64,000 bases of DNA from a virus, in IMG/VR virus record IMGVR_UViG_3300029208_000007, one strand, 5' to 3'. The translations under genes and the position numbers were made by a program. The notes below the pieces were generated by a model. It had not been told where the DNA came from. It did no database searches and saw only the letters and a list, made by a program, of their open reading frames with translations. Of the stretch, positions 26,777-60,437 are shown one piece after another (position 1 is the first letter of the stretch; the number at the start of each line of letters is the position of its first letter).

Positions 26777-26782
26777 AAACAT

Positions 26783-28198: not shown

Positions 28199-28222
28199 GA
28201 TGTAAAGCAGGGAGGATAATTC

Positions 28223-28645: not shown

Positions 28646-29049
28646 CTTTTCCAGAAGTAGTTCATAAAAAGTTACTTCCATTGTATTTATCAATCGGTGT
28701 TTCAGAAGAAAAGTTTATGGATTCTACACCATATGATTTAGAACCATATATGGAAGCCTACAAATTAAAACAAAAAATGGCTGATTCGCAAGCATGGCAG
28801 TTCAACATGTACACGATGTGTGCAGTTCAGACTGCGGTTGCAAATGTGCTTATTGGTAAAAAGTCAAAGGCTGAATACCTTAAAGAACCATTTTCACAAA
28901 CAGCCGAAAAGCAAAAGCAAGAGGATGAAGAAAATCTTTCTGAAACAGAAAAGAAACGGCAACGTGACAGGTTGCTCATGACATTGCAACTCATGCAAGC
29001 AAATTTTGAGCTGAATCATGGTAATAATGACGAGGGCAGGCAGGATTAA
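28552..29049 (+). other. -1 frameshift site T TTT TTA and T-like chaperone extension
   Basis: Heptamer at 28552-28558 in the zero frame (GGT TTT TTA). The -1 frame is open from 28504 to 29049. Confidence 0.7.
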
Positions 29050-29095
29050 AAGTCTTGTCTGCCCTTTATTTTTTTGATTAAAAGGAGGTGCTTTA

Positions 29096-32000: not shown

Positions 32001-33745
32001 CTGTTTTTGCTATTGGTAATAAGCTCATGCCATTAGTTGATACAATTACTAAGTTTTTTACAGGTGATACTGTATTTGGAAATCTTTCTAAAGCTGTACA
32101 AGGTATGCTGAGTCCCGCAATCACAGAAGCAGTCTCAACAACTATTCCGGCTCTTGGGACATCGTTAGGCTCACTTGTTGCAACTGGTGGTGGAATTGCT
32201 CTTGCAGTAGATGGTGCAGTATTACTTACCAAGAAATTAGCAGGACTTTTTGAGACCATGCAAGGTGGTAATGGAATGACTACACAGTATGGTGGTTATC
32301 TCCATGATTACGCAACACAGCTTACTAATGTAGCGAATCTTACTAATGAGCAGTCAGAAGCATTATGGCAGCTGATTGAAAAGGACGAAGAACTTGGAAA
32401 AACTCATGACGAAATGTATGCTGATATGGTTGAAAAACTGAAAGAGTATGGTGTTTCATCCGATCAGGCTAGAACAGCTCTTGAGCAGTATGGCGCACAG
32501 GCAGGTGTATCGGCTGAATTTGTTGAAGGCATGACCAATCAAATTTCTGCTCTTGGAGAATGCGTGTCTGAAGCTGCAAGCAAGTTTGATACGTCAAAGA
32601 TCAGCGTTGATAATTTGAAAGATACTCTGTACGCATTGAGCCTTTCTTCCGCTGAATTTGGGGGAAATTATACGACTGCATGGAATATGATTAGTGAAGT
32701 CCCATACAGCAATACAACTGATGCACTAAATGCAGTTTATACTTCATTGAAAAACGCAGGTGTTCCGCTCGATGAATTGAACAGTAAATTATCGAAAGAT
32801 TTCCCGAACGCTACGTTAGCCACAAAATCAGCAGTAGACAAGAATATTGTTGGAGCACAGCAGACTATATCAACATCAGTTGGACAGGCATCAAGAGACA
32901 CTCAAACAGCCACAAATCAAATGGCAAAAAATGCCACAGATGATTTCTCGGAAATCCAGAAACAGGCTGATACTTACATGAAAGGCATGGAAACTACAAC
33001 TACTAGCTCATGGGGAAATTCTTCCAGAGAAGCGACATTAAAGGCAAGGGAGATGAAAAATGCCGTAAGTACAGAACTTGGAAATATGGACAAATCTGTA
33101 ACAAGCCATTTCCAAAGTCAGTACAACATTGCTTATAAGAAATGGGAGAATATCGGAAGAGATATCTCTTCTTATGTTTCTGGAAGTATGTCAAAGAGTA
33201 TGGATAGCTCTTTAAATAGCTTTATGAGAACTATTCGCAGCGCATTCAGTGATATGTACAGCATTGGCCATAATGCGGCTCAATCATTAAGAAATGGAAT
33301 GAAATCCGTGAGAATGCCTACGCTTTCGTATTATATTTCTCAGTGGAAAACACATAGCCTTGGGAACGGCGGTACCAGTTCAACCCCTGTCTATAGTCCG
33401 AACTGGTATGCAAAAGGTGGTTTGTTCAAAAATGCATCTGTCATTGGTGTAGGCGAAGCAGGACAGGAAGCTGTTCTTCCTTTGGAAAATCAAAAAGCCA
33501 TGAAATCCATTGCCGACAGTATCATGTCCGGCTATGACGGCAACATGGGACTTACGAAAGATGAGATCATGGAAGCTGTCGAGCGTGGCGTAGTTACCGC
33601 TTTGATGAACAATGGTGGCTTTGGCGGTTCTTCGCCGGAGTACATCATGAACAGCATCAAAGTGAACGAGCGTGAACTGGCACGAATTGTCACAAAGGCT
33701 CAGAACAACACAGATTACCGCATGAATCCGTCCCCGGCATATTGA
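29096..33745 (+). CDS. tape measure protein
   Basis: 1549 aa, helical and repetitive, located after the chaperone pair. Confidence 0.9.
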   Translation: MADNTIDTLNIQIESSTTQAVRSINNLVKKLDTLNTAFGNLDISRLNNFSNSLKSLGSVNFKANGLNAAINAINRLGKSDFSQFDTGKLGKILTEMQKLDAIPDVSPSVSRFTTAIAKLSGTGQYIGNVSKELPNLATGLNNAATKLGSMSEVSASTNAFITSLGKLAGAGDKTGKTASQLSTLAQEVLKFFDVMKSAPDISSSTIRMTEALAVLASSGSKVGRATNSVSNSFNALSSLGSKASTVINGLTNAFQKFASKAISLGGKAVSAIAGIGNASSETGEKIRRLSNPMSSVTDKLSALYAKGFLVKRALDVLTSPVESAMNYVETLNYFNSAFNQVAEGINTDEWKKSGIKSAEAYANSFQERAKQLSQKLTGFEISDTGELARTNTASLGLDPEKTMQYQATFAQMASSMGDTSETALRLSNALTMIGADLASVRNMDFEDVWQDMASGLTGMSRAMDKYGINIRNANMQQELYNLGIDTSISKLSQADKTILRTIILLNNSKYAWADLSNTINQPANQIRMLQSNFASLGRTIGSLFIPILQTVLPYINAIVIAIQRMFAYIAKLLGIKLSNFVSSTGGISVDTSNIADDMDNASDSIDTANKNAKKLKKTLSVLSFDELNQLNDNSDSGSTSNPSSGSGKGGLGHIKALDAALNDALSAYQKAWDEAFKKMSNRANEMADAIVNAFKRKDWKGLGKIMADGINWGMQKLYDFINWNNVGPYITKFTSAFTQTFNSLVDNINWDLMGRTVGAGMNTIVNTANQLLEGIDWKNLGAKFANGITGLVREVNWENFGNLLGNSFMRGWDIFSGFVENLQYGEIGTAVAEGLNGIFEKINFGEIAHTLATGLNGAFDTLASFTASFNWENLVDNITNGITTFMQEFNWKENGQKLEEFINKLLTSLIEIARGVDWEAFGHNVGVFLSEIDWGKHLAQLLTVIGDVLGGIWEGLGTTSAGTFVQAMAVFAIGNKLMPLVDTITKFFTGDTVFGNLSKAVQGMLSPAITEAVSTTIPALGTSLGSLVATGGGIALAVDGAVLLTKKLAGLFETMQGGNGMTTQYGGYLHDYATQLTNVANLTNEQSEALWQLIEKDEELGKTHDEMYADMVEKLKEYGVSSDQARTALEQYGAQAGVSAEFVEGMTNQISALGECVSEAASKFDTSKISVDNLKDTLYALSLSSAEFGGNYTTAWNMISEVPYSNTTDALNAVYTSLKNAGVPLDELNSKLSKDFPNATLATKSAVDKNIVGAQQTISTSVGQASRDTQTATNQMAKNATDDFSEIQKQADTYMKGMETTTTSSWGNSSREATLKAREMKNAVSTELGNMDKSVTSHFQSQYNIAYKKWENIGRDISSYVSGSMSKSMDSSLNSFMRTIRSAFSDMYSIGHNAAQSLRNGMKSVRMPTLSYYISQWKTHSLGNGGTSSTPVYSPNWYAKGGLFKNASVIGVGEAGQEAVLPLENQKAMKSIADSIMSGYDGNMGLTKDEIMEAVERGVVTALMNNGGFGGSSPEYIMNSIKVNERELARIVTKAQNNTDYRMNPSPAY

Positions 33746-33978
33746 TTTTTGCGGTAGAATTTGATATACTAAACGAGAAATAGTTATTACATTTGTTGAA
33801 GAGAGCACACTAAAGATGAAACGAGGGAAAAACCTCACGATTCTTTTGTGTGCTCTTTTTTTGTTTGGTAAAACCAACAGGCTAACCCGACGGGGGACAA
33901 GCGGAAATGCCTTGCCGCCTGCCTGTTGATTTACATACATTTCAAGGCATCTTATATACGAAAGGCAGGTATTTTTTT

Positions 33979-34344
33979 ATGGCAAAATCTTTTAACTACC
34001 GTAAATATTACAAAGACTATTATGGGATTGATTTCGACAGTAACTATGTAATCCACCATATTGACTTTGACAGAAGCAACAATGATATTAATAATTTAAT
34101 TCTATTACCTTCGAAGTTACATAGTCGATATCACTTTTTATTAACTGGATTTAATTCTGATAAAAACAATAAAGGGATTGCAAGTCTTGATTTTAAAATC
34201 GTCTCAGAATGTGGGAGCATCCCTATGTTCGGAATAAACATGATGAAAAATTTATGTGAAACAATGGCAGAAATTGATAAATGGGTAAGAATAAAATCCG
34301 ATATGGATAGAGCAAAATACAACAAAGAAGTGTATGGTATTTAA
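33979..34344 (+). CDS. HNH endonuclease
   Basis: HHIDFDRSNNDINNLILLPSKLHSRYH. Confidence 0.7.
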   Translation: MAKSFNYRKYYKDYYGIDFDSNYVIHHIDFDRSNNDINNLILLPSKLHSRYHFLLTGFNSDKNNKGIASLDFKIVSECGSIPMFGINMMKNLCETMAEIDKWVRIKSDMDRAKYNKEVYGI

Positions 34345-34435
34345 TATGTGGTAAATTCAGTAGGCTAGGGTAGCTCCCGAAAATCTCACCTCCAAGAGAT
34401 ATGCCTACTGTTTTTATAAATTTGGAGGATTGAAA

Positions 34436-35497
34436 ATGAATGGAGGTCATTTTATGGCAGTATTTAGAGTACACAAAACAAAGAATTATACGCTGATGAG
34501 TAATCATCATCTTAGAGATAAGGATTTGAGTTTAAAAGCAAAAGGGCTTTTATCTGTAATGTTTTCATTACCGGATTCTTGGAACTATTCTATTCCCGGG
34601 TTATGTGCAATTTTAAAGGAAAATGAAACGGCAGTGAAATCAACCATAAAAGAGTTAAAAGCAACAGGGTATCTTATTGTGGATAAGAAAAAGCCTTGCA
34701 AAGAAGAGGGACGATCTAAGTTTGAGTACATTTATAACATTTACGAAACTCCGCATGAGGTATCTGACAATAGCAATAATCAAGAGGCTTTTTTTCAAGG
34801 TATAGAAACCCTAGCCCTAGAAGTCCCAGAGGTAGAACATCACCCCCATAATAAAAGAACTGATATATCAACTACTGATAAATCAATTACTGATAAATCA
34901 ATTACTGATACAGATAAAGACTGTACTTTATCAAGTACAGAGGAAAAGACTTTACCATCGTCTGGTAAAGGAGTAAAGACTTCTGCTCCTAATAATATTA
35001 AAAATATAAATATAAATAATATACCACCTAGAACGAAAGAGCAGAAGCAGGAACGGTACGCACATGCGAAAAATAATCGCTCTGTCGATTACAAAGACGA
35101 AGAACTACCGACAATCCTGTACAATGGATTTAATTCTCTGTACGGGGACAAAGAAGATATTTTGGAAGACCACGACATCTGCCTGACTATGGCATTAGTC
35201 AGCAACTTCTTTGAAAAATTCAAACAGTATCGGGGAGAACGACACCCGATGGTTTATGCCAATGATCTTGACCAGTTTCTGAGTATGATTCGAAATGCTG
35301 ACTTGGATATGGTGAAAGACGGAATAGTCGAAGAAGACGAGGAGCCGCAATATTATCTGGACATGATGGACGAGTATTTCGGCTCTGACATTGGGAAAAA
35401 CAACAATATGGACTGCGATTATCATATCTGGCTGTTCTTCACGGAGAAGACACAGAACATTTTGTATAACCGCGTGAAACAGAAACGGGAGGAATGA
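34436..35497 (+). CDS. wHTH replication-organizer-like protein
   Basis: N-terminal pattern FRVHKTKNYTLMSNHHLRDKDLSLKAKGLLSVMFSLPDSWNYSIPGL. It also has the internal tandem repeat TDKSITDKSITD. The start could be 34454. Confidence 0.5.
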   Translation: MNGGHFMAVFRVHKTKNYTLMSNHHLRDKDLSLKAKGLLSVMFSLPDSWNYSIPGLCAILKENETAVKSTIKELKATGYLIVDKKKPCKEEGRSKFEYIYNIYETPHEVSDNSNNQEAFFQGIETLALEVPEVEHHPHNKRTDISTTDKSITDKSITDTDKDCTLSSTEEKTLPSSGKGVKTSAPNNIKNININNIPPRTKEQKQERYAHAKNNRSVDYKDEELPTILYNGFNSLYGDKEDILEDHDICLTMALVSNFFEKFKQYRGERHPMVYANDLDQFLSMIRNADLDMVKDGIVEEDEEPQYYLDMMDEYFGSDIGKNNNMDCDYHIWLFFTEKTQNILYNRVKQKREE

Positions 35498-35501
35498 AAA
35501 T

Positions 35502-35789
35502 ATGCCAATAGACAGACCATTGTTTGAACCGGGGGACATAGTAAAACATTTCAAGAGAGAAACCGTCAGTAATTTGCGGAGCAATGATTACCTGTATAAG
35601 ATTGTCGGCGAAGCAAAGCATACAGAGACAGACGAACCACTGATAATTTACCGTGCTTTGTATGGAGAAAGAAAACTATATGCCAGACCACAAAAAATGT
35701 TTTACAGTTTGGTTGATAAAGAAAAATATCCAGATATTTCACAGAAGTACAGATTTGAAAAATATGAAGGACAGATATTCATTGAATAA
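35502..35789 (+). CDS. DUF1653-like protein
   Basis: GDIVKHFKRE..YLYKIVGEAKHTETDEPLIIYRALYGERKLYARPQKMF. Confidence 0.55.
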   Translation: MPIDRPLFEPGDIVKHFKRETVSNLRSNDYLYKIVGEAKHTETDEPLIIYRALYGERKLYARPQKMFYSLVDKEKYPDISQKYRFEKYEGQIFIE

Positions 35790-35901
35790 AACAGCCTAAA
35801 ATCTATTTTAAATACAGAGGGCGATTATTTCCTCGCATAGATGCTTCAAATGGATTTTAGATGGAAAACGATACAGTAATTAATTAGAAAGTGAGAAAGA
35901 A

Positions 35902-36231
35902 ATGAGTAGACTTGGAAAAGAAATGCCAGCAGAGTATTCAGACAGATTTGACGAACTGAGACAAAATCGAGTAGAAGCCAGTTTTTACAAATACGGCACG
36001 GCAAAAGATAATTTTGGAGAACGTCTGGTAAATGCGATTGAATCACACGATATGTGCATTAAAAAATATAAAGAAACTGGTAACACGGAGTATCTTTGCG
36101 ATGCTGCGAATTATCTGATGTTCGAATTTATGTATCCACAAATCAAAGGTGCTTATTTCAAAGCAACCGACAGTGGGGAAAGTGCTGGAGTAGTTGGAAC
36201 ACCAATTAATCAGTTAAAGGAGAAATGGTAG
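35902..36231 (+). CDS. hypothetical protein
   Basis: ORF with an RBS. Confidence 0.45.
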   Translation: MSRLGKEMPAEYSDRFDELRQNRVEASFYKYGTAKDNFGERLVNAIESHDMCIKKYKETGNTEYLCDAANYLMFEFMYPQIKGAYFKATDSGESAGVVGTPINQLKEKW

Positions 36232-36336
36232 GATGAAAAAATCGGGCAATTCTTATGGGAAACACGGATTATGAATCATTTTGTAAAGAACACTTCGAAA
36301 GATTCATTTCTGATGTCCAAAAGAAACATTAATATA

Positions 36337-36457
36337 ACTTTTTCTTACTGAATCTCACCTTGTATATGTGATAGAATAAAGAATCATAAAGCGTCTATCA
36401 GAGCGATAGGCGCTATTTTCGTGTAATTAAGCATCTTCTTTCGGGAAGGTGCTTTTT
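36337..36457 (+). promoter_or_regulatory. late regulatory cassette copy 3 (diverged)
   Basis: Box AACTTTTTCTTACTGAATCTCAC (36337-36359), TGATAGAAT, and an extra hairpin AGCGTCTATC/GATAGGCGCT. A conserved hairpin GCATCTTC..GAAGGTGC (36431-36452) is followed by TTTTT. Confidence 0.55.
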
Positions 36458-36474
36458 CTTTTATGAGGTGTTAT

Positions 36475-36837
36475 ATGGCAGAAATATTTTTAAAAGTAAA
36501 TGGTGTCTCGATGCCTTGCCCGTCTTCCTACACATGGGGATTACAGGACGTATCAGCGGCAAAATCAGGAAGATCTGATGACTCTGTCATGCATAAAAAC
36601 AGGGTAGCGCAAAAAAGGAAATTAGCTTTGCAGTGGAAAGGTAAAGATTGGGCTACTACAGCTAAGATCCTTCAAGCGTTCAATCCCGAGTACATCCAAA
36701 TTACATATCCAGATATGATGTCTGGAAAATACGAAACCAGAACATTTTATGTTGGTGACAGGAGTGCGCCTGTTAAATGGTGGTGGCATGGAAACCAGAG
36801 AACAGAATCTATCAGTTTTGATGTGATTGAGAGGTAA
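36475..36837 (+). CDS. distal tail protein-like (small)
   Basis: Position upstream of the Tal-like gene. Confidence 0.35.
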   Translation: MAEIFLKVNGVSMPCPSSYTWGLQDVSAAKSGRSDDSVMHKNRVAQKRKLALQWKGKDWATTAKILQAFNPEYIQITYPDMMSGKYETRTFYVGDRSAPVKWWWHGNQRTESISFDVIER

Positions 36838-36840
36838 TGC

Positions 36841-39800
36841 ATGAGAAAATTATCTAACAGATGGAAAGAAAAAGTCAAGAACGGAATGGACGTGCAGTAC
36901 CTCAAGTATGCAGATATCACACTTACAGACGGAACTGTACTCAATCTGACCAGTGCCAATCTGTGGCAAAACGGAATGGAATTCGAAGATTCCGTATCTA
37001 ATGATAGTAGCTTTGACATCGGTTCTGCAATCATCAATGTATTGAATCTTAGCATTAATAATTTTGACGGTGAGTACTCCGATTACGATTTTGAGGGAGC
37101 AGAAGTCATATGTTATGTTGGATTACAGATTGAAAATGAGGATACAAGTGAACTGTTAGATTCAGCTGGAGAACAAATACTGGATTCAACCGGTGATACA
37201 ATCATAGTTCATAAAAATGCGGTTATTGAAAAAACACGTATTTGCACAGTGACAGTTATTGAACAGCCGGAAGACGAAACGGTGACCATAGACCTTACGT
37301 GCGAAGATAATATGCGGAAGTTTGACCGCAATTATTCCGACAGCAAATTGAAATATCCGGCAACAAGAGGGCAGATTGTACGAGATGCCTGCGAGGTATG
37401 TGGGGTTACTCTGCAAACTTTAAACTTCTATAGAGATGATTACATTGTGCAGAATCGTCCAAATGACGAAGCTTTAACATTTCGCCAGGTTCTACAGTGG
37501 GTTGCGCAGATTGGCTGTCAGTGGATGAGATGCGATGAATATGGCAGATTGTGCGTCAATTGGTACGGTTTTGTCAATGAAGAAGAACTTACAGTTGATG
37601 AACTTGGAGTATTAAAAACACAGGACGGAAGCAACGTTAATCTTAACTTCTCGAACTCAGATGGTGCGTTGTCGGCTGACAATGGTACGCTTCTTGAAAA
37701 TGATGGGATTCTGAGGCTTTTTGCAACTGACGAAAAAGGTAACATTTCTGAAATAGAAACCACCTATGGTTTTACTCCGCATCATACAGATGTAGTAATC
37801 ACAGGCGTGAAAGTAACTGAATACAGCGAATCCTCTTCTGATAATCCGCAAACTTACATGGTTGGTACAGAGGGATATGTACTTGGAATTTCTGGTAATA
37901 AATTAATTCGTGTTGGCGATGGCCAGACAATCGCTTCAATAATCTCCGAAAAATGCGTTGGCATGAGATTTAGACCATTTGAATCCGAGTGCCCTACAGA
38001 TGTGGCTCTGGAAGCCGGAGATTCACTGATTATTGTGGATAGAAATGGAAAAATATACACATCGCTACTTACCACAACTACATTGAAACCGGGATCTGGT
38101 CAGAAGATAGCTTGTAATGCCAAAAGCGCTGCTAAAAATAGTAGCACCCAATATTCCCAGGCGACGCAGGCATTTGTTGCTGCAAGAAATATGGTTAAGC
38201 AGGAAAAAACCGCCCGTGAAAAAGCACTTGAAGAATTCGGAAAGCGAATTGATTCAGCAACTGGTGTATATACCACCGTTGAGACACAGGAGGATGGAAG
38301 CCAGATTTTCTATCTGCATGACAAACCTACACTTGCTGAATCCAAAGCGGTATGGAAAATGACTTCTGAGGCATGGGGAGTTTCTACAGATGGTGGTCAA
38401 ACGTGGAATGGCGGTATGACTGTTGATGGCGATACGATTGTAAGAATCCTCACAGCCGTAGGATTAAATGCTGACTGGATTAACACAGGTGCGATTACCG
38501 TAAAGGATAAGAGTGGAAATATCATCTTCCAAGTCGATATGGACACCAAAACGGTTGTTATCGACCCAGATGTTTTGATTATCGGAAATATGACATTGTC
38601 CGAGAAATTGGAAAACATGGATGAGAATATTGCATCTGCCAAGAATATGACATTCCAGCTGTCAAACGATATGCAGACGATCACATCTGACGCAGACGGA
38701 AACATTCCGGTATTTCCAACAGTGGCAACTACAGCGAAAGTTATGTACGGCTCGTCAGATATCACAAATGATTGTAGCTATACCATTACAAAATCAGACA
38801 GTGTAACCGGCTCTTGGGATGTAGATACACATACTTACACTGTCACAGGCTTGAGTGCAGACAATGGATGGGTGGATATTAAGGCAACGTACCTGATTAA
38901 TCTTTCTATAACGAAGAGATTTACATTAGCGAAACAAAAGCAGGGACTTGAAGGTGACAAAGGACTTCCGGGAAAATCACCGACCATTCGTTATGCGTCT
39001 ATGCCGGATGGCACCGATATGTCGGATAATCCGAAGTATGTAAAATTACTTGACAGTGCCGGAAATATAATAAGCGATTCAACTGGTGACATTATTTATA
39101 CAAGTGGTGAAGCATTTTATGTCGGATTCCTAAAAGAAAGCGCAGAAGTAGACAGTACGAATCCAAGTGACTATGAATGGTCACGGTACAAAGGAACTGA
39201 CGGGCTGACTCAATACACTCATCTCGCTTATGCGAATAGTGCTGATGGAAAAACAGATTTCTCAGTCGATAATCCAAACCGTGAATATATCGGCATGTAC
39301 GTGGACTTCGAAGAACAGGATTCCACTAACCCGGAAAAGTACGCATGGACATTGGTTAAGGGCGCAAACGGAGCACAGGGCGTGCCGGGGAAACCTGGAA
39401 CCGATGGTAAAACACCTTATTTCCATATTGCCTATGCGAACAGTGCGGATGGAAAGACTGAATTCTCAGTAGATAACAGTGTCGATAAGCTGTATATCGG
39501 TCAGTACACAGATTACTTACCAGATGATAGCACTGACCCAGCTAAGTATAGTTGGACAAAGATTAAAGGTAACGACGGTACTCCGGGAAGAACGTATTAT
39601 CTGAGAGCCAACGCAGGAGTTCTGATGATGGGACAGGATAAGAAAATAACTCCTAATCCATTTAATGTTCATGCGTATTACAGAGATGGACAGGGTGACG
39701 AAGCAACTTTTAAAACCTGGTGGGTAGTAGAATACAGCAAAGATGCCGGAAAAACATGGACAAAAATGGCCTTTAATTCACAGACCAGTGGAATAACTAT

Positions 39801-40809
39801 TAATCCAGATAGCTATTCTCTTGGTGCTGACGGAATGATACGTGCAACAATTTATACGGATTCCGGAAGAACTAAAATCGCCGATCAGCAGACATGGCAG
39901 GTTGCTGTTGACGTTGGCATGCTTACGCAGGAGCAGATTGTTGAGATATTGTCTAATGACGGAGAATTTAAAGGTCTCTACTATCTGAATGGACATCTGT
40001 ACATCAGTTTAGACGCATTGATGGGAAACGCCGCAATTCTAGGTGGAGCCAAAAACGGCAACGGATACCTAAAGATTAAAGATAAAAAAGGCACCGTGAA
40101 GGAACTGATAGATTACTCAGGCTACACTGCATTTACAAGCTATGAAGAAAATTCTACGCGCATGAAATATACAGGAATTTGTTTTTCAGATACTGGAATA
40201 AATCCTGTTAGTGCCGAGAAATACTTTAGCAGCACTGCGGACATTGAATACGTTGAAACGGCGTGGGGAATCGACTGGACTGCCGAAGAGCTTAATATTA
40301 GTGCAACAGAAGTATCGGCTGATACCGGTACATTTGGAGATTTAACTGTTACTAATTCTGCATCTTTTACAAAATCGCCAAAGATAGAAGACATGGAGTA
40401 TACGACATCATCAAATACTATTTGTTGGGATGGACGTACAGGATACAAACAGCTGATGCTGAAATCTTCATCCTCGAAACGCTATAAAGATATTGGAAAC
40501 AATATTGCAGAACAAGAAATTGAAGAATGGTACAATATCGAACCAACATGGGCGAAATATAAAGAGGGATATCTAGTTAAAGGGGACGAGAATGAAGGAA
40601 GATATATCCCGATGTTTATTGCTGAGAATGTAGAAGCATTCTTTCCGGAAGCTACTCGGCATCAAAACGGACTTGTTGAGGACTGGAATGAGCGTATCAT
40701 GATTCCAGCAATGTTTGCAATGATAAAAAGCCAGAAAAAACAGCTTGACCGACAGAAAGAATTAATTAATCAGCTTTACGAAAAGCTCAATATAGAAAAG
40801 GAGAACTAA
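36841..40809 (+). CDS. tail-associated (Tal-like) structural protein with collagen-like triplets, three ~55-aa repeats and C-terminal S74 intramolecular chaperone
   Basis: N-terminal prophage-tail-endopeptidase-like region. Triplets GLEGDKGLPGKSP and GAQGVPGKPGTDGKTP. The repeated YxHxAYANSADGKT(D/E)FS module occurs about three times. The C-terminus SSSKRYKDI..NERIMIPAMFAMIKSQ is typical of S74 autoproteolytic chaperones. Confidence 0.8.
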   Translation: MRKLSNRWKEKVKNGMDVQYLKYADITLTDGTVLNLTSANLWQNGMEFEDSVSNDSSFDIGSAIINVLNLSINNFDGEYSDYDFEGAEVICYVGLQIENEDTSELLDSAGEQILDSTGDTIIVHKNAVIEKTRICTVTVIEQPEDETVTIDLTCEDNMRKFDRNYSDSKLKYPATRGQIVRDACEVCGVTLQTLNFYRDDYIVQNRPNDEALTFRQVLQWVAQIGCQWMRCDEYGRLCVNWYGFVNEEELTVDELGVLKTQDGSNVNLNFSNSDGALSADNGTLLENDGILRLFATDEKGNISEIETTYGFTPHHTDVVITGVKVTEYSESSSDNPQTYMVGTEGYVLGISGNKLIRVGDGQTIASIISEKCVGMRFRPFESECPTDVALEAGDSLIIVDRNGKIYTSLLTTTTLKPGSGQKIACNAKSAAKNSSTQYSQATQAFVAARNMVKQEKTAREKALEEFGKRIDSATGVYTTVETQEDGSQIFYLHDKPTLAESKAVWKMTSEAWGVSTDGGQTWNGGMTVDGDTIVRILTAVGLNADWINTGAITVKDKSGNIIFQVDMDTKTVVIDPDVLIIGNMTLSEKLENMDENIASAKNMTFQLSNDMQTITSDADGNIPVFPTVATTAKVMYGSSDITNDCSYTITKSDSVTGSWDVDTHTYTVTGLSADNGWVDIKATYLINLSITKRFTLAKQKQGLEGDKGLPGKSPTIRYASMPDGTDMSDNPKYVKLLDSAGNIISDSTGDIIYTSGEAFYVGFLKESAEVDSTNPSDYEWSRYKGTDGLTQYTHLAYANSADGKTDFSVDNPNREYIGMYVDFEEQDSTNPEKYAWTLVKGANGAQGVPGKPGTDGKTPYFHIAYANSADGKTEFSVDNSVDKLYIGQYTDYLPDDSTDPAKYSWTKIKGNDGTPGRTYYLRANAGVLMMGQDKKITPNPFNVHAYYRDGQGDEATFKTWWVVEYSKDAGKTWTKMAFNSQTSGITINPDSYSLGADGMIRATIYTDSGRTKIADQQTWQVAVDVGMLTQEQIVEILSNDGEFKGLYYLNGHLYISLDALMGNAAILGGAKNGNGYLKIKDKKGTVKELIDYSGYTAFTSYEENSTRMKYTGICFSDTGINPVSAEKYFSSTADIEYVETAWGIDWTAEELNISATEVSADTGTFGDLTVTNSASFTKSPKIEDMEYTTSSNTICWDGRTGYKQLMLKSSSSKRYKDIGNNIAEQEIEEWYNIEPTWAKYKEGYLVKGDENEGRYIPMFIAENVEAFFPEATRHQNGLVEDWNERIMIPAMFAMIKSQKKQLDRQKELINQLYEKLNIEKEN

Positions 40810-43693: not shown

Positions 43694-44392
43694 TTATTTA
43701 ATAATATATTCCCAATATTGATTTTTAATATCCGCATATCCGTTCTTACGAATCAGTACTTTATCACCAGAAAACATCGTAAAATCAGAATCCAGCTTTT
43801 GCACATAATCCATGTTTACAACAAATGACTTATGGCAACGCAAAAACCGTTTATCAAGGTAAGGCTCAACCGACTTTAAAGTTGCATACATACTGTGCAT
43901 AATCCCGTTCGTGCAATGAACAAAAACTTGCTTATCCCGTGCTTCGAGGTACTCGATTTTGTTCAATGGAATCCTTATAATGCAATCTCTGTGTCTGATT
44001 GTGAGCATCTTGTGTTTCATATCACTCAAGGTATTGTCAATCATAGAAAACATTCTTCCGTGTTCATTTCCCTTGATGATATAATGCGTAAATTCAACAT
44101 CCAACGCATCAAAAACAAAATCCTTGTGAGCTGTCCAGAAAGCAATTTTGCCCTTATATCCACACTCTCGGAGTTCTTTGGCAATATCCACGCCATTTTC
44201 GTTTTTAAGTATTACATCCAAGACAATCATATCAAACCATTTTCCGTCCTTAACATCATCTATCAAGGGTTCCCCACTGAAATAACCGTCTATCGTATAA
44301 TTCCGGTCACCGTTTTGCTTCAAAAACGGTTCAATCCGATGCTTAAAATACTCAACCTGTAGTTCACAATCGTCACAAATAGCAATTTTCAT
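43694..44392 (-). CDS. orphan LytTR-family response regulator
   Basis: Receiver domain MKIAICDD..MIVLDV and a C-terminal LytTR DNA-binding domain (IEYLEARDKQVFVHC..FLRCHKSFVVN). No kinase gene is adjacent. Confidence 0.8.
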   Translation of the reverse strand: MKIAICDDCELQVEYFKHRIEPFLKQNGDRNYTIDGYFSGEPLIDDVKDGKWFDMIVLDVILKNENGVDIAKELRECGYKGKIAFWTAHKDFVFDALDVEFTHYIIKGNEHGRMFSMIDNTLSDMKHKMLTIRHRDCIIRIPLNKIEYLEARDKQVFVHCTNGIMHSMYATLKSVEPYLDKRFLRCHKSFVVNMDYVQKLDSDFTMFSGDKVLIRKNGYADIKNQYWEYIIK

Positions 44393-44603
44393 AGTAATCA
44401 CCTTCCGTTTATCGCTTGCACTTCAACTTTCATCAGATTATCCTCATCTAAGTAATCAATTATGGTAATATAGTAGCACCGAAACGAAAATGTGTAAATA
44501 GTTCAGCGAAATTTCGAAAAAATTCGACATATTAATTCGTTGGTACAGCCTGCCAGATTGCTCTGGGGAGGAACGTGATCGTGAATGCAGGTTTTACCAT
44601 AAA

Positions 44604-54969: not shown

Positions 54970-55902
54970 ATGGCAAGCAAAACGCAGGTAACAACAGTAG
55001 GAGAACAGCAGGCAGCAGTTGTGATTAACAATCAGTTTATTGACGGATTGACAAAACAGCTTGAAGAAAAATGTAAATATGGTCTTTCTTTTCCAAAAGA
55101 CTACAATCTCAGCAATGCACTTATGGGGGCATATCTGGTTCTCAAGGAAACGAAAGACAGGAATAACAAACCAATTCTGGAATCTTGTAGTCAGATTAGC
55201 ATCGCAAATAGTCTTATGAACATGGCAACACTAGGGCTTTCAGTACAAAAAAAACAGGGGTATTTCATCGCTTACAGCGGTCAATGCCAGTTCCAGAGAT
55301 CATATTTCGGAAATATGACGATTGCCAGAAGATACGGAATGAAAGATATTCACGCAGAGATCATCTACCAAGGAGATAAATTTAAATATCATATTGAAGA
55401 CGGAAATAAGGTTCTGGATTCTCACGAACAGGATTTCATGAACATTGATAATGAAAAAATCCTTGGCGCATACGCAGTTGTGCTGATGGAAGATGGGGCG
55501 AAGCATTTGGAAGTAATGAACATCAAACAGATTAAGCAAGCTTGGTCACAGGGCTTCGGATACAAGGAAAATGGAAATGGCACACACCAGAAATTCACTG
55601 ATCAGATGGCAAAGAAAACCGTTATCAATCGCGCCTTAAAGCAGATCATCAACACTCATGGTGATGCTTTCGTACAGGAAGCGGACGATGATACAGAAAC
55701 AGTTTCAAGAGATGACGCTTTTGCAGCTGATGTTGCATATGAAATCGAACAGCACGCCAACAAAGAGGAATTTGTGCCAGTAATCGAGGAACAGCCTAAA
55801 CAGCCGACAGTTGCAGAAACCGTAAAAACTGCCGAGAAAGAGCCAGCTCCGGCAGCAGTTGTCGAGCCAGAGATTCCGGATTTTATGAAACAGGAGGAAT
55901 AA
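54970..55902 (+). CDS. recT: RecT-family single-strand annealing protein
   Basis: MNMATLGLS..KQGYFIAY....QFQRSYFG ... KKTVINRALK. Confidence 0.8.
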   Translation: MASKTQVTTVGEQQAAVVINNQFIDGLTKQLEEKCKYGLSFPKDYNLSNALMGAYLVLKETKDRNNKPILESCSQISIANSLMNMATLGLSVQKKQGYFIAYSGQCQFQRSYFGNMTIARRYGMKDIHAEIIYQGDKFKYHIEDGNKVLDSHEQDFMNIDNEKILGAYAVVLMEDGAKHLEVMNIKQIKQAWSQGFGYKENGNGTHQKFTDQMAKKTVINRALKQIINTHGDAFVQEADDDTETVSRDDAFAADVAYEIEQHANKEEFVPVIEEQPKQPTVAETVKTAEKEPAPAAVVEPEIPDFMKQEE

Positions 55903-55914: not shown

Positions 55915-56307
55915 ATGATCGGGACGTTAGAAGAAGTCATGAAGGATATGAAATATGGCGTACTTGATTTCACAAAGGACGGTAAATGCAGTGGTTGTGG
56001 ACAATGTTGTAGCAACTACTTGCCAATATCCAGTAAAGAAATTAAACGTTACGTAAAGAAGCATCATATCACTGAACAGAAGCATAATTATCCTTCAGTT
56101 GTGGCATTTGACCTTACTTGCCCGTTCCTGGATGATTCCAAGGCAAAAGAAAAATGTCTTATATATCAAGTGAGACCTGAGATATGCAGAGATTTTGTCT
56201 GCAACAATCAGAACGGGGCAATCAAAAACAAGAAACTTATGCATAAGAAGTACGCAGCAGTAGATATGCGAGAAATATTTTTTGGAGGCAACGGGAATGA
56301 ACAATAA
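55915..56307 (+). CDS. YkgJ-family Cys-cluster (CxxCxxCC) protein
   Basis: CSGCGQCCSNYLP ... CPFLD ... CLIYQVRPEICRDFVC. Confidence 0.65.
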   Translation: MIGTLEEVMKDMKYGVLDFTKDGKCSGCGQCCSNYLPISSKEIKRYVKKHHITEQKHNYPSVVAFDLTCPFLDDSKAKEKCLIYQVRPEICRDFVCNNQNGAIKNKKLMHKKYAAVDMREIFFGGNGNEQ

Positions 56308-56902
56308 AGAAATTTTACAGAAAGCAAAGGAACTGGTTGAACTTCTGGAAAAGCAGGAAGAAGCTGGCAAGGTTGAGTTGTCAATGCTGAAACGAGGAGA
56401 TGTGTTCCAGACCACTGGGAAGCGTAAATACAAGGTTCTGGAACAGTATGGAGATACAACGAAAATTATTTCGTTTGATCTGGTGAAAGAAAATGTAGAG
56501 TTTGGTGATACCTCAGATTACAAAACATCAAAGGTAAAGAAACTGTGTGACATTGAAATTCTGAAGGACTTCGAAAAAGAATTCGGGGCAGAAAATATCG
56601 AAACACACACAGCAGATATTATCACTGCGGATGGACAGAAATTGGGGACTGTTGATTGTAAAATTCGACCGATTACGTTTGATGAAGCACGAGAATACAC
56701 AGATATTACACCGAACAATGACCTGAACGACTGGTATTGGACATTATCGCCATGGTCAACAAAAGAACGTGGATGGAAGAAAGCCTTGGCCGTTGTTTCC
56801 CCTTCGGGCTATATCAGCAACCGCCATTGCAGCAACGGAAATGGTGTTCGCCCAGTTTGTATCTTAAAATCTAATATCTTTGTATCTAAGGTGGAGGAAT
56901 GA
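56297..56902 (+). CDS. DGR target protein 1 (C-type-lectin/DUF1566-like C-terminus)
   Basis: C-terminus WYWTLSPWST...AVVSPSGYISNRHCSNGNGVRPVC contains VR1. Confidence 0.85.
   Translation: MNNKEILQKAKELVELLEKQEEAGKVELSMLKRGDVFQTTGKRKYKVLEQYGDTTKIISFDLVKENVEFGDTSDYKTSKVKKLCDIEILKDFEKEFGAENIETHTADIITADGQKLGTVDCKIRPITFDEAREYTDITPNNDLNDWYWTLSPWSTKERGWKKALAVVSPSGYISNRHCSNGNGVRPVCILKSNIFVSKVEE
56790..56854 (+). repeat. DGR variable repeat VR1
   Basis: A 65-nt match to TR with 6 mismatches. Five of them are at TR adenines. Confidence 0.9.
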
Positions 56903-56904
56903 TT

Positions 56905-57504
56905 ATGAAGAAAAATCTGAAATATTTTGAGGATGAATTATCCAGATTAAGTAAAGAGTTCACAGAATTCAAGAAAAAGCACATCGGAAAGCCGGAAATC
57001 GGAAAAGCTATTGAACTTGCTGGCATGGAATGGCTGATTCTGGATAATACAGAAAAAGGATATTTTGCCATTTTGAATGGATTTGATGGAAAAGAAAGAA
57101 CATTTGATTTAGCTTCAAATAACTGGATTTCGAGTAAACTGAGAAATGAGTTAAATACTCGTTTTCTTAAAAAAATTACTGACGAGTTTGGAGAAGATGC
57201 AGTTATTGAGTTTGATCGAGATTTGCTTTCTTTGGACGGTCAGACAGAATATGGACATTGTAAAGATAAGATTTCGATTTTGACGATGGACGAATACCGA
57301 AAATACAGAAAATTCCTTCCAAATATGGGTAAATGGTGGTGGTTGCTTACTCCATGGAGTACACCAGCAAATGATTACAGTACAACACTTGCCGTTGTTT
57401 CCCCTTCGGGCTGTGTCTACATCAACCTTTGCAGCGACGGAAGTGGTGTTCGCCCAGTTTGTATCTTTTCTTCTTCAATCTTTGAATCGGGGAATGATGA
57501 TTGA
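56905..57504 (+). CDS. DGR target protein 2 (paralogue of target 1)
   Basis: C-terminus WWWLLTPWST...AVVSPSGCVYINLCSDGSGVRPVC contains VR2. Confidence 0.85.
   Translation: MKKNLKYFEDELSRLSKEFTEFKKKHIGKPEIGKAIELAGMEWLILDNTEKGYFAILNGFDGKERTFDLASNNWISSKLRNELNTRFLKKITDEFGEDAVIEFDRDLLSLDGQTEYGHCKDKISILTMDEYRKYRKFLPNMGKWWWLLTPWSTPANDYSTTLAVVSPSGCVYINLCSDGSGVRPVCIFSSSIFESGNDD
57392..57456 (+). repeat. DGR variable repeat VR2
   Basis: A 65-nt match to TR with 12 mismatches. Eleven of them are at TR adenines. Confidence 0.9.
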
Positions 57505-57875
57505 TGGCAAATGAAGATTTAAAGGTAATAACAAAGGCCAAGCAGCTTGCAAAGCATACATTAATAGTTACGAGCAATGCCAGACGATACCCGAAAAAAT
57601 ATAGGTTTTCACTTGTAGATAAAATGCAAAATAAAGCATTGGAAATTTATGAGTCACTATTTGAAGCCAACCGAACTGATCTGAAAGATTATAAAGGAGA
57701 ACGATTAGAACTTCAAACAAAAGCCATTACTCATTGTGATGAGTTGATGTACTTTATAGAACTTTCATATGAATTGGGAATTATCAATTCCGGTGGAATG
57801 GAAGCATGGTCGCAAATGGTAAAAGATATAAAGTATATGACTATTTCATGGAGAACAAAAGACAGAAAAAGATAA
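57504..57875 (+). CDS. avd: DGR accessory variability determinant (Avd-like four-helix bundle)
   Basis: About 123 aa, basic and helical, located between target and TR. It has the Avd/S23-like pattern RYPKKYRFSLVDKM...ALEIYESLFEAN. Confidence 0.75.
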   Translation: MANEDLKVITKAKQLAKHTLIVTSNARRYPKKYRFSLVDKMQNKALEIYESLFEANRTDLKDYKGERLELQTKAITHCDELMYFIELSYELGIINSGGMEAWSQMVKDIKYMTISWRTKDRKR

Positions 57876-57901
57876 TTTTCACAGGTTATGCACTGCGAAT
57901 A

Positions 57902-57966
57902 CCGTTGTTTCCTCTTCGGGCTATATCAACAACAACCATTGCAACAACGAAAATGGTGTTCGCCCA
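57902..57966 (+). repeat. DGR template repeat (TR)
   Basis: Non-coding, between avd and the RT gene. It contains AAC AAC AAC ... AAC AAC codons in the VR reading frame. Confidence 0.9.
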
Positions 57967-58070
57967 ACATGGATCACATGCAGACAGAGTAAGCGTAAAG
58001 CTGAAATCAGAAAAGATACAAGCAAATGCATAACCTTTCCGCAATGGACAAACATAAAGGAACAAAATAA

Positions 58071-59090
58071 ATGGATAAAGAAATTGTTGCAAATTTTGAG
58101 AATTTATATCGTTCTTACAAAAAGGTTAAGAGCGGTAAAAAATTTAATTCAGGTACTGCAAGATTTTCTAATTTGTCTCTTGAAGGCATTCATCTCTTGA
58201 AGGAACAATTAGAAAGTCAAACGTATACCATAAATCCGTATAATAAATTTCAAATTCATGAGCCAAAAGAGCGAACGATAGAATCATGTGCATTTAAGGA
58301 CAAAGTAGTGCAGAGATGTTTTTCTGATTACATTCTGACACCGAAACTTGAAAATATCCTAATTAAATGGAACACTGCCGGACAGCAAGGAAAAGGGCAA
58401 CGCATGGCAATGGACGGGTTAAGAAATCAAATGTTGGATTTCTATAAAAGAAATGGAATGAATAGTTGGATTGTAAAATGTGATATTCACAAATACTTTT
58501 ATTGCATAGACCATGAAATCATGAAAGATGTTTTGGATTATTACTTTGATGATGATTTTACAGTCTGGTTGAACCATTTGTTTATTGACAGTACAGGTAA
58601 TCCCGGGCTTCCATTAGGAAATCAGGTAAATCAAAAGTACGCATTGTTGCTTTTACATTCACTGGATCAGATGATAACGATTGAATTTGGAAATCCATAT
58701 TACGGACGATACAACGATGATTTTTATGTGATTTGTAAAACGAAAGAAGATGCCAGAGAAATTCTTGAAGCAATCCGAATGATGATTGAAAGCCTTGGAT
58801 TGGAGCTAAACCCTAAATCACAAATTGTACCATTTCGCATGGGATTGTGTTATCTGGGCTTTCACCATTACGTGACTGATGAAGGAAAATATATCAGAAA
58901 ATTGCGTGGTGATAAGAAAAGAAAAACACAGAGAAAAATCCGAAGATGGGTACGGGTAGTGAATGACGGGAAGATGTCGATAGAAAAATTCCATGAAAAA
59001 TACGGAGCATGCCAAAATCATATGCTTCATGGAAATTGTATCAAATTATGCCATAGTATGGATTCGGAAATTAAAAGGAGGATAAAATGA
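58071..59090 (+). CDS. DGR reverse transcriptase
   Basis: PGLPLGNQVNQ is a DGR-type LGNxxxQ motif. The catalytic motif is YGRYNDDF. Size is about 340 aa. Confidence 0.9.
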   Translation: MDKEIVANFENLYRSYKKVKSGKKFNSGTARFSNLSLEGIHLLKEQLESQTYTINPYNKFQIHEPKERTIESCAFKDKVVQRCFSDYILTPKLENILIKWNTAGQQGKGQRMAMDGLRNQMLDFYKRNGMNSWIVKCDIHKYFYCIDHEIMKDVLDYYFDDDFTVWLNHLFIDSTGNPGLPLGNQVNQKYALLLLHSLDQMITIEFGNPYYGRYNDDFYVICKTKEDAREILEAIRMMIESLGLELNPKSQIVPFRMGLCYLGFHHYVTDEGKYIRKLRGDKKRKTQRKIRRWVRVVNDGKMSIEKFHEKYGACQNHMLHGNCIKLCHSMDSEIKRRIK

Positions 59091-59437
59091 GATTAATTAG
59101 TCAGAATGGAGAAATTGACGTTCCTTATGAAATCACTTCATTAAGTAGAACCGGAAATATCATAAGAGCATACGTGCCGATGGTAGGTGAAAAGGGAACA
59201 GTTATGGCTCGTTATTTGACAAAAGAAAAAGCCCAAAAAGCTATGAAAGCGTTGCATAAAGTGTATGCAGGAATGTTTCTTGCGCAAAACGTTGAAATGA
59301 GCGATGACGATTACGAGGAATGCATAAAAATGGCTGCAAGAGGTTTTGGAATCATCAAAATAATGGTTAACAGCCCAGATATGAAATTCGAACCGGCAAA
59401 CATTGTGTTTAGATTCCCGGAGGATGATGAAGTATGA
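59087..59437 (+). CDS. hypothetical protein
   Basis: ORF with an overlapping start. Its N-terminal layout is similar to the partial ORF at 63768. Confidence 0.5.
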   Translation: MRLISQNGEIDVPYEITSLSRTGNIIRAYVPMVGEKGTVMARYLTKEKAQKAMKALHKVYAGMFLAQNVEMSDDDYEECIKMAARGFGIIKIMVNSPDMKFEPANIVFRFPEDDEV

Positions 59438-59668: not shown

Positions 59669-60437
59669 TTGTTCATGCGAGTAATTTCAACAGGTAGTAC
59701 CAAAGGAAATTGTTACGCTTTGCAGTCAAGTGCAGACGAGATTGTTCTTCTTGACTGCGGGTGCAACTACAAGAAAATCCTCAGAGGGATTGACTATTGG
59801 ATAAGCAATATTGATGCAGTACTTCTTTCTCATGAACACGGGTGACCATACAAAGTCATTCAAGGAAATAATGAATGCAGGCATTCAGATTTACACCAAT
59901 GACGAGACAGTTGAGAACATGAACATCCGAACAGGCGAATTAATGAAAGGTGTTCCAGAAAGGCATCCATTTAGAGTTGGTTCGTTTAACGTGATTCCAT
60001 TTGAATTGCCGCATACAACATACGATAAGGAAGCAAATCAGCTTGTACCTTGCTCGAACTACGGATATCTGGTGGAGCACAATGAAATGGGGAAGCTTCT
60101 GTATATTACTGATTTTGAGTACAGTAAATATAATTTCCAGAAAATGAACATACATCATCTGGTAATTGAATGCAACTACTGTGAAGAATTGGTGGACAAA
60201 ACAGAAGCTAACTACAGTCATAGATTAAAAGGACATTGCTCTTTGTCAACTTGCAAGCAATTCATTAAGCAAAATCGCACAGAATCGCTTCGGACGGTAA
60301 CACTGGTACATTTAAGTGGTCAGGCATCTGATGCCTGTAAAATACAGAAAGAAATACAGGAAGTCGCAGGAGACAATGTTCTGGTTCAGATTGGGCGGGC
60401 TGGACTGGAAGTTGACTTGAATTTATGCCCGTTTTGA
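59669..60437 (+). pseudogene. MBL-fold hydrolase interrupted by a 1-nt frameshift in the HxHxDH motif
   Basis: Frame A reads ..MRVISTGSTKGNCY..VLLSHEHG then stops at TGA (59843-59845). A second frame continues GDHTKSF... from 59841. The switch lies in the GGG run at 59840-59842. Confidence 0.6.

Follow-up and report, generated by a model that had tools for sequence, protein, structure and literature searches.

A diversity-generating retroelement with two small tandem DUF6273 targets in the early region of a tailed phage

Diversity-generating retroelements (DGRs) are, to our knowledge, the only natural machines for targeted protein hypermutation in prokaryotes, and those of phages are nearly always read as host-range devices that act on tail fibres. 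The 64,000-nucleotide stretch of DNA analysed here in full (hereafter the window; IMG/VR virus record IMGVR_UViG_3300029208_000007) belongs to a tailed phage and raises the questions of whether it carries an intact element of this kind and, if it does, what the diversified proteins are for. Within positions 56297-59090 lie five closely spaced + strand features (that is, two target genes, T1 and T2, an accessory variability determinant gene, avd, a non-coding repeat and a reverse transcriptase (RT) gene). On the basis of the repeats, of the proteins and of a survey of related phages, we conclude that the cassette is very probably an intact DGR working by mutagenic retrohoming.

An earlier note on this DNA had proposed a complete DGR in the order target 1, target 2, avd, template repeat (TR) and RT, and each of these parts is indeed found in that order and where it had been placed (Table 1). 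The genes are tightly packed, with overlaps between the CxxCxxCC gene and T1, T1 and T2, T2 and avd, and RT and the open reading frame (ORF) of 116 aa that follows it. The Cys-cluster gene, which is found in some relatives only, overlaps the start of T1 by 11 nt, and T1 itself has a GGAGG ribosome-binding site 8 nt upstream. The start of T2 at 56899 overlaps the T1 stop codon, the alternative start at 56905 being more likely in that it is better spaced behind a GGAGGA site and is chosen by most gene callers. The ATG of avd has one base in common with the T2 stop codon, and the start of the 116-aa ORF overlaps the RT stop; in relatives that lack RT, this ORF comes straight after T2.

Table 1 Features of the cassette and of the rest of the window (positions are those of the window; single numbers are given where only one position is reported)
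Feature	Position	Strand	Remarks
RtcB ligase	10742-11944		
Terminase	12010		
Portal	14242		
Major head protein	16901		
Tape measure protein	29096-33745		
Tail protein	36841-40809		1,322 aa; matches host-range and adsorption families
Endolysin	42144		
LytTR-type response regulator	43694-44401	-	Receiver and LytTR DNA-binding domain; between endolysin and repressor-like gene
Helix-turn-helix (HTH) repressor-like gene		-	Past endolysin
ORF6N antirepressor-like gene			Ahead of the + strand early block
SSB-like gene	51003	+	Early block
SbcC-like gene	51617	+	Early block
RecT single-strand annealing protein	54970-55902	+	Pfam RecT, E 1e-38; same block and strand as cassette
CxxCxxCC (YkgJ-like) Cys-cluster gene	55915-56307	+	Pfam PF03692, E 1e-11
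T1 (target gene 1)	56297-56902	+	201 aa; small DUF6273 protein; charged N-terminal helix; variable repeat C-terminal
VR1	56789-56854	+	66-nt variable repeat of T1; gap-free alignment to TR 57901-57966
VR1 3' flank, IMH-like (GTTTGTATCTT)	56855-56865	+	
T2 (target gene 2)	56899-57504	+	201 aa, or 199 aa from 56905; T1 paralog
VR2	57391-57456	+	66-nt variable repeat of T2
VR2 3' flank, IMH-like (GTTTGTATCTT)	57457-57467	+	
avd (accessory variability determinant)	57504-57875	+	123 aa
TR (template repeat)	57901-57966	+	66 nt, 19 adenines; non-coding, between avd and RT
IMH*-like TR flank (ACATGGATC) and spacer up to RT	57967-58070	+	104 nt
RT (reverse transcriptase)	58071-59090	+	339 aa
ORF of 116 aa, function not assigned	59087-59437	+	phrog_25456; downstream edge of cassette
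Metallo-beta-lactamase-fold hydrolase	59669-60437	+	After 116-aa ORF
SSB	60863	+	Early block
GIY-YIG gene	61341	+	Early block

The case for a retroelement begins with the repeats. A repeat search returned one three-copy family, with copies at 56790, 57392 and 57902, and anchors taken from its ends recover the same number of copies from the 64-kb window (the 21-nt 5' anchor, with up to 3 mismatches allowed, gives 3 matches against 0 expected, and the 12-nt 3' anchor also gives 3). No remote third variable repeat (VR) was found by this anchor search of the window, about 14 kb of the phage genome lying outside it. Over 65 nt, VR1 departs from the TR at the 6 positions counted by the earlier note, 5 of them at TR adenines and one a T-to-C difference at TR position 57913; VR2 departs at 10 positions, rather than the 12 reported previously, of which 9 are at adenines and one is the same T-to-C, the shared non-adenine change to which the note had drawn attention. 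Its total of 18 mismatches with 16 at adenines does not hold over 65 nt, where 14 of 16 mismatches fall on the 18 adenines (binomial P 1.0e-6; Fisher's test of A versus non-A, 1.4e-7), and is recovered only when the alignment is extended to 57901, at which the TR has A and both VRs have G (7 differences in VR1, 6 at TR adenines; 11 in VR2, 10 at adenines). Because the position equivalent to 57901 is mutated in 10-80% of the VRs of relatives, depending on the TR group, we define the TR as 66 nt (57901-57966).

The TR also appears to be of a design that suits safe mutagenesis. In the frame of the targets it reads GYINNNHCNNENGVRP, and this reading, together with the two VR peptides given earlier, proved correct; it contains six AAY codons, places 17 of its 19 adenines at codon positions 1 and 2, offers no stop codon that adenine changes could reach, and could encode about 1.5e10 peptides per VR, with the VR ending 16 codons ahead of the stop codon in each target. 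Directly 3' of the repeats, alignment bears out the previously described difference between the VR flanks (GTTTGTATCTT) and the TR flank (ACATGGATCAC), which disagree at 4 of the first 9 positions: GTTTGTATC stands after both VRs, and either ACATGGATC or ACCTGKATC stands after the TRs of the window and its relatives. The VR flank is the same after both window VRs, and the VRs of relatives show rare single-base variants only. We read from this pattern a putative recipient-specific flank, similar to the initiation of mutagenic homing (IMH) element, that is present at the VRs and not at the TR.

Between TR and RT, the spacer is nearly invariant across 39 distinct relatives. A small 4-bp hairpin lies at the 3' edge of the TR (arms 57968-57971 and 57977-57980), and its pairing is kept through a double change from CATG..CATG to CCTG..CAGG (15 versus 23 sequences); this is the only pair in the spacer with a compensatory change, conservation being too high for covariation to be informative, and no Rfam family matches the TR-RT spacer region. 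Two related TRs depart from the general arrangement. In L027, the TR (positions 5832-5906 of that locus) has the recipient-type flank GTTTGTATC and carries A-to-G changes (AACGGCGAA), as would be expected if an IMH-bearing TR mutagenizes itself. In L061, the TR core (5832-5897) is an exact copy of the VR2 core of the same cassette and has 10 adenines left, gene conversion having apparently overwritten it.

Might the three copies nevertheless be ordinary paralogous or recombining sequence, with an adenine bias that is coincidental or compositional and no retroelement activity behind it? T1 and T2 are paralogs and a conserved C-terminal coding segment is hence expected anyway, and copy-to-copy recombination does occur, given that the L061 TR equals its own VR2 and the L027 TR has a VR-type flank. 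However, the third copy stands in non-coding DNA immediately upstream of an RT, and the relatives speak against a compositional accident. An RT-based scan of IMG/VR yielded 80 loci with RTs 80-99% identical, and TR/VR statistics were taken from 63 genomes with the three-copy layout (62 related phage contigs and the window; 126 TR/VR pairs). The VR changes of relatives, which the earlier note had expected to be restricted to TR adenines, are concentrated there: 1314 of 2506 TR-adenine sites (52%) differ in the VR, as against 21 of 2424 C (0.9%), 19 of 1310 G (1.5%) and 49 of 1950 T (2.5%), and differences are 20-60 times commoner at adenines than at other bases. These genomes hold 22 distinct TR cores, 60 distinct VR1 and 61 distinct VR2 sequences, the VR1 sequence being unique in 60 of 63 genomes and the VR2 sequence in 61 of 63. 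The spectrum of changes at TR adenines is skewed towards A-to-G (719, 55%) and A-to-T (522, 40%), with A-to-C making up the remainder (73, 6%).

More direct still is the comparison of near-identical cassettes, for which we took 34 cassettes with the same spacing from T1 start to RT stop and left the VRs out of the flanking count. Five cassette pairs have 0 differences over 2,662 flanking nt, yet differ at 1-15 of 66 bases per VR (for example, 9 and 11 differences in VR1 and VR2 for L003/L004, and 13 and 15 for L019/L020). Identical flanks combined with differing VRs mean that the change is recent and targeted, and therefore that the element family is active. The two recipients also change separately, as the earlier note had proposed: VR1 and VR2 are as similar at TR-adenine sites within a genome (identity 0.40) as between genomes that share a TR (0.39), and L034/L036 show, on an identical background, 1 change in VR1 and 9 in VR2, and L014/L042 show 0 and 12. 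Diversification is thus seen to be ongoing at the level of the family, in consensus assemblies, and it is both recent and independent for the two VRs. In view of the zero-difference flanks, we find the explanation by ordinary repeats hardly credible.

The proteins encoded beside the repeats point in the same direction. The RT matches Pfam RVT_1 (E 6e-12) and phrog_1423 (E 2e-84), and its best relative of solved structure is PDB 8ub7 (E 6e-25), ahead of the best group II intron RT (1.4e-13) and of 'retron-type' RTs (5e-12). From its sequence we take 8ub7 to be bRT, the enzyme of Bordetella phage BPP-1, and an arginine aligned in our RT presumably corresponds to bRT R74. The LGNxxxQ and YNDDF motifs named in the earlier note are both present, within GLPLGNQVNQ and YGRYNDDFYV, so that the [ILV]GxxxSQ motif reads LGNQVNQ here; GLPLGNQVN[Q/L] occurs in 84 of 84 matched RT copies, and YNDD in 81 of 81 recovered. 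A search of NCBIfam with the RT gave no match to a DGR-specific RT family. Best matches and motifs thus place this RT, which adjoins the repeats, putatively in the DGR clade. The avd product matches phrog_3206 ('Avd protein of DGR') over its full length (E 5e-24) and is probably an Avd-type accessory protein.

By analogy with the BPP-1 paradigm, from which we take the cDNA route and the roles of Avd and of the flanks, the element can be envisioned to work as follows. The 66-nt TR and the conserved spacer would be transcribed, and RT together with Avd would copy the TR RNA into cDNA, misincorporating opposite template adenines. In one or the other recipient gene, the cDNA would then displace the 66-nt homologous segment at the 3' end, with recipients marked by the flank GTTTGTATC and the TR, followed by ACATGGATC, being spared. 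In this way the C-terminal segment of T1 or T2 would be re-randomized at no more than 11 codons per event, six of which are AAY, with no stop codon ever arising.

The two recipients are paralogs of about 200 aa arranged in tandem, as previously described, with 34% identity to each other (E 1e-30). Both exceed the cutoff of Pfam DUF6273 (PF19789; 23.5 bits), a C-type-lectin-like domain of DGR targets, by a small amount (T1 25.0 bits, T2 26.6 bits), only the C-terminal third of the model being matched, and both match phrog_9958 over nearly their full length (T1 E 5e-26, T2 E 2e-47). The claim that they lack signal peptides agrees with their highly charged N termini and low maximal hydropathy (Kyte-Doolittle(19) 0.6 and 1.1), and no transmembrane segment was found in either protein by the same measure. 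An AlphaFold2 model of T2 from a shallow alignment (78 sequences, all close T1/T2 relatives) reached pLDDT 41; a second alignment of 138 sequences, built from 50%-identity representatives through a third homolog search, gave pLDDT 69 and pTM 0.62. Given that 114 of the 120 added homologs form one 60%-identity cluster, the gain in diversity for this model was limited. It shows an N-terminal helix (residues 2-28) and a confident core at about 30-140, and is usable over residues 1-140. When the model was searched against BFVD, DUF6273 proteins from gut phages came out as the top fold matches (E 3e-3, TM 0.55, about 210-220 aligned columns).

Several observations weigh against an intact, working DGR with lectin-like targets. 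The avd product scores 40 bits against NCBIfam DivGenRetAVD, for which the cutoff is 80, and its scores against Pfam 23S_rRNA_IVP and bAvd are also under the cutoffs. A GC-rich hairpin downstream of the VRs, in the style of BPP-1, was found at neither VR; the 63 nt comprising the conserved VR 3' end and the downstream flank fold with no advantage over shuffled controls (z +1.25 and -0.05). Such hairpins or cruciforms are not universal among DGRs, and their lack here is therefore no bar to membership. As for the targets, the VR segment of the T2 model (149-183) has pLDDT below 50, a Foldseek search of the model against the PDB gave no match, and a profile search against PDB sequences found nothing. 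The lectin fold that the earlier note had assigned to the targets is hence putative, since the T2 model has no match in the PDB.

The strain of the window provides the remaining points on this side. Four further assemblies, each from a different sample accession (L087-L089 and L091, with L087 standing for 17 further similar places), have the same VR1, VR2 and TR as the window, the exact T1 protein occurs on 39 contigs and the exact T2 protein on 87, and both VRs have C where the window TR has T (57913). This last mismatch reflects either a TR mutation after the last homing or a transfer that stopped short on the 5' side. None of the other related TRs recovered has T at 57913; they carry C or G, and the TR of L016 equals that of the window except for a C there; the T is therefore best understood as a private mutation of the window TR that was not copied into the VRs. 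Non-adenine mutagenesis was considered as a source of the shared T-to-C and rejected, as other related TRs carry C or G at this position.

It could accordingly be asked whether the element of the window strain is a silent or rarely firing relic, with VRs that are effectively frozen and a future without an RT. The identity of the three repeats across assemblies and of the proteins across 39 to 87 contigs would fit such a state, as would the adenine content of the window TR (18 in the 65-nt core, compared with 18-22 in relatives, and fewer than in most), the small number of mutated sites in its VRs (5 and 9, compared with a family mean of about 10), the T/C mismatch left uncorrected at 57913, the absence of avd and RT from about 24 of 80 T2-anchored relatives, and the existence of a version of the same strain in which 57530-59047 is deleted. 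On the other hand, all ORFs of the window cassette are full length with intact catalytic motifs, and the stop-free AAY design of the TR is retained. The window VRs, moreover, have the lineage-specific non-adenine bases of the TR (CAT TGC codons), so that homing must postdate the appearance of these bases in the TR. Identical sequences could also reflect one clonal lysogen or laboratory strain that has been sequenced repeatedly, and minority variants are hidden in consensus assemblies. The window strain may be such a repeatedly sequenced clonal lysogen or may carry a rarely firing element, two states that consensus assemblies cannot separate. We consider a relic rather unlikely and continue to read the cassette as an intact DGR.

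Loss of the diversifying machinery with retention of its targets is nonetheless a recurrent outcome among relatives. A T2-anchored survey of contexts (80 loci, close relatives only) shows that about 24 of the 80 loci (~30%) keep T1-T2 without avd and RT. Among these, L090 is the window strain (99.35% identity) lacking window 57530-59047, and L084, a Blautia obeum prophage, shares with the window only 56284-57531 (92.6% identity). Past the T2 stop, both L090 (5200-5290) and L084 (11200-11290) keep the first ~29 nt of avd (window 57504-57531), and because this remnant of the avd start is retained, both descend from DGR-bearing ancestors. The shared breakpoint suggests a possible recombination hot spot at the T2/avd junction. 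Other departures were also seen, with loss and REARRANGEMENT among relatives: L065 (4800-5450) has a single T1-like target; L008 (1-3400) has the order T2-avd-T2-avd-RT, owing either to a duplication or to faulty assembly at the end of the contig; and L078 (5400-5900) has a T1-like gene right before RT with no recognizable avd.

What, then, do T1 and T2 do? The tail genes all lie within 22990-40809, and the cassette follows about 16 kb on, past the lysis and repressor genes, in a + strand block with SSB-like, SbcC-like, RecT and CxxCxxCC genes, which supports the placement in the early or recombination module made by the earlier note. No terminator-like site was found on the + strand between 49000 and 62500, the promoter and terminator scans being no better than for shuffled sequence. 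Most relatives also have RecT next to the cassette, as does the distant locus L092. In the L084 prophage, the pair is surrounded by an SNF2 helicase, methyltransferases and genes that Pfam matches to the Sequestin and Tad4 families, and in L083-L086 (4328-4579, 12106-12414) the RT-less pair lies within a few kb of genes with such Sequestin and Tad4 matches and of two N6/N4 methyltransferases, surroundings that look to us like an anti-defence neighbourhood. Given the gene position, the overlapping start and stop codons and these anti-defence-like neighbourhoods (Sequestin-family, Tad4-family and Apyc1-like Pfam matches, and methyltransferase genes), we favour, tentatively and with slightly less than even confidence, a role of T1 and T2 as early-made soluble ligand-binding proteins in phage-host conflict rather than as tips of tail fibres. 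For such a role of a DGR target, Quimbyvirus (PMC8008677) is the sole precedent in the literature.

The more familiar assignment would make T1 and T2 virion-associated receptor-binding or adhesin modules, that is, small proteins of Mtd-like or decoration type that dock through the N-terminal helix on the tail or capsid and whose genes only by chance stand outside the structural module, with the DGR serving to switch host range or adhesion. All experimentally understood phage DGR targets are virion proteins (for example, BPP-1 Mtd), and the authors of PMC10743442 and bioRxiv 10.1101/2024.10.15.618418 read homologous small DUF6273 targets as Mtd-like receptor binders. DUF6273 occurs too in Hoc-like and tentaclin virion proteins, and there is a weak match to phrog_10993; the helix at residues 2-28 could be an oligomerization or docking element, and virion proteins need no signal peptide. 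Against this assignment stand the distance of T1 and T2 from the last tail gene, their overlapping codons within the RecT/SbcC-like/SSB block, the recurrence of an early-region position in four phage groups, the presence in this phage of a 1,322-aa tail protein that already matches host-range and adsorption families, and the Blautia obeum prophage in which the same pair stands beside methyltransferase, Sequestin-family and Tad4-family genes. Nor do the proteins look like Mtd-type tail fibres, since the globular part is preceded by no more than a helix of some 28 residues and the genes are 16 kb from those of the tail. Virion association is in our view possible but somewhat doubtful, and we retain the soluble-binder reading as our working preference, leaving a smaller share of probability to roles of another kind.

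The recurrence in question was observed well beyond the close relatives. A profile search of the small-protein family against 1.84 billion cluster representatives found 1,423 clusters (50% identity) at E<=1e-3 and 853 at E<=1e-10, mostly of about 200 aa and matching end to end, and searches with T1 and T2 returned 3,800-4,350 clusters at 90% identity; the phage family is very common in human-gut data. Three distant contexts contain members 29-52% identical to T2. One of them, L092, reads HTH, Bro-N, SSB, AAA_23, one small gene, T1, T2, avd, RT, RecT, metallo-beta-lactamase/Apyc1-like and SSB; L094 resembles it, but with just one neighbouring gene annotated as DUF6273; and L093 has a target pair without any RT. 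Among annotated phages, nd4, nd12, Lelie, FP_Toutatis (gp24) and FP_Brigit encode small T2 homologs (29-32% identical), and we equate, by sequence similarity, those of nd4, nd12, Lelie and Toutatis with the small DGR targets reported there. The neighbours of Toutatis gp24 are methyltransferase, replication-initiation and Q-antiterminator genes, and those of the nd4 homolog are SSB and DnaC-type genes. The early-region site of the small DUF6273 protein thus recurs in four phage groups and is therefore not peculiar to the window. A search for the host, with the RT as query against GTDB species representatives, found nothing, and the only clue comes from a 763-kb contig of Blautia obeum that encodes a homolog 90% identical to T1.

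How far does the element differ from those already described? It shares with BPP-1 (mtd-avd-TR-brt) the order target-avd-TR-RT, adenine-specific differences between TR and VR, a C-terminal VR and IMH versus IMH* flanks, but has two recipients instead of one, a TR of 66 nt instead of 134 nt, and, in place of the 381-aa Mtd with its fibre-binding N-terminal domains, DUF6273 proteins of about 200 aa. Its RT motif is LGxxxNQ with YNDD, it lacks the GC-rich hairpin downstream of the VR, and it lies in the early recombination block, whereas the BPP-1 cassette stands at the end of the tail genes. In multi-target cellular DGRs (Treponema denticola, Legionella and Stenotrophomonas), one TR likewise serves several paralogous recipients, which, however, are bacterial surface lipoproteins or secreted proteins with signal sequences and other C-lectin subtypes.

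Phage elements with two targets are closer. The two targets of nd4 and nd12 (Baykov et al. 2023, PMC10743442) likewise belong to DUF6273, and each of these phages encodes a small homolog of T2 (29-32% identity over 87-89% of its length) that is, as we equate it from this similarity, presumably the 'tgt2' of that paper. The partner target there, a large 'tentaclin', carries its VR in an N-terminal DUF6273 domain ahead of Ig domains, in contrast to the small tandem paralogs with C-terminal VRs described here, and a tblastn search up to 7 kb from the nd4 homolog showed neither RT nor Avd, whereas our cassette is contiguous. The DGR of Toutatisvirus and Lelie (PMC11792537; bioRxiv 10.1101/2024.10.15.618418) also has DUF6273 targets, one large and one small, and some relatives that keep the targets without the DGR; its small target, however, lies about 17 kb from the TR, its other target is a Hoc-like decoration protein, and its host is Faecalibacterium, while our sole host clue is Blautia. 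In Quimbyvirus (Benler et al. 2021, PMC8008677), a target is located outside the structural module, by methyltransferase and RNA-repair genes, and has been interpreted as a player in phage-host conflict. That Bacteroides phage differs in its frameshifted RT, in having one structural and one non-structural target and in that no DUF6273 assignment was reported, whereas no structural target was found in our 64-kb window. Two targets are present in about 13% of DGR cassettes, a figure quoted in PMC10743442.

The unusual character that the earlier note ascribed to the arrangement was therefore overstated, in that small DUF6273-only, two-target and non-structural precedents have been published, and the FP_Toutatis and nd4 homologs are also early. 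DGRs of gut Firmicutes phages, DUF6273 targets, small DUF6273-only targets and two-target cassettes are all on record, as are DGR loss with targets kept and a non-structural phage target. What is modestly new is the restriction of the targets found to a tandem pair of small paralogs, the contiguity of the cassette with a RecT/SbcC-like/SSB block, repeated in two distantly related phages, and the loss of avd-TR-RT with the targets kept in ~30% of relatives; the quantitative demonstration of recent, independent diversification is new. The element is a well-supported and fairly ordinary member of a known family and adds little conceptually, its single notable trait being a location among genes of early recombination instead of those of the tail.

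Elsewhere in the window, an RNA-repair-like module (4754-5930, 6086-7543, 7673-7757 and 10742-11944) contains five tRNA genes (Gln, Met, Tyr, Arg and Ser), the RtcB ligase and a DUF2828/DUF7788/vWA protein (phrog_850, 'RNA-binding protein') that is possibly Ro-like. A 114-nt Rfam tRNA match within it (5817-5930), not called by ARAGORN, could be a tRNA-like Y RNA or an insertion-bearing tRNA. An Rfam match to the int-alpA sRNA lies just past the tape-measure gene (33875-33947; 49 bits, gathering threshold 35.8). Downstream of the cassette, the hydrolase gene (59669-60437) is split into ORFs of 58 and 208 aa by an extra G (CACGGGTGACCAT; the HxHxDH motif needs CACGGTGACCAT), and at least 14 related loci share this G, so that the gene is either a lineage-wide pseudogene or subject to a programmed frameshift. 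In two distantly related phages, the counterpart genes show a faint or weak Pfam similarity to the anti-Pycsar protein Apyc1.

The position of the cassette further allows the conjecture that the DGR is functionally tied to the early block, such that RecT, SSB and SbcC-like proteins would anneal the single-stranded cDNA, mutagenized at adenines, into the VRs at the replication fork, and T1 and T2, instead of binding receptors from the virion, would serve as early-made cytoplasmic antibody-like binders that the phage re-tunes against variable host defence or takeover targets. We regard this combined scheme as improbable, and the narrower proposal that RecT and SSB help to integrate the mutagenized cDNA is similarly a speculative long shot. 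Were it true, nature would here have its own parallel to retron-plus-RecT recombineering, and there would be an answer to how the cDNA is integrated in DGR homing, a step that is still unsolved.

In summary, the window offers a clean case in which diversification was found in no proteins other than two minimal lectin-like domains encoded among early recombination genes, and its relatives supply natural controls (that is, relatives that lost RT, a variant with one target, a TR that its own VR has overwritten and another that acquired the recipient flank). Together these make the family a convenient system for two questions: the function of non-structural DGR targets, and whether phage annealing proteins play any part in cDNA integration.

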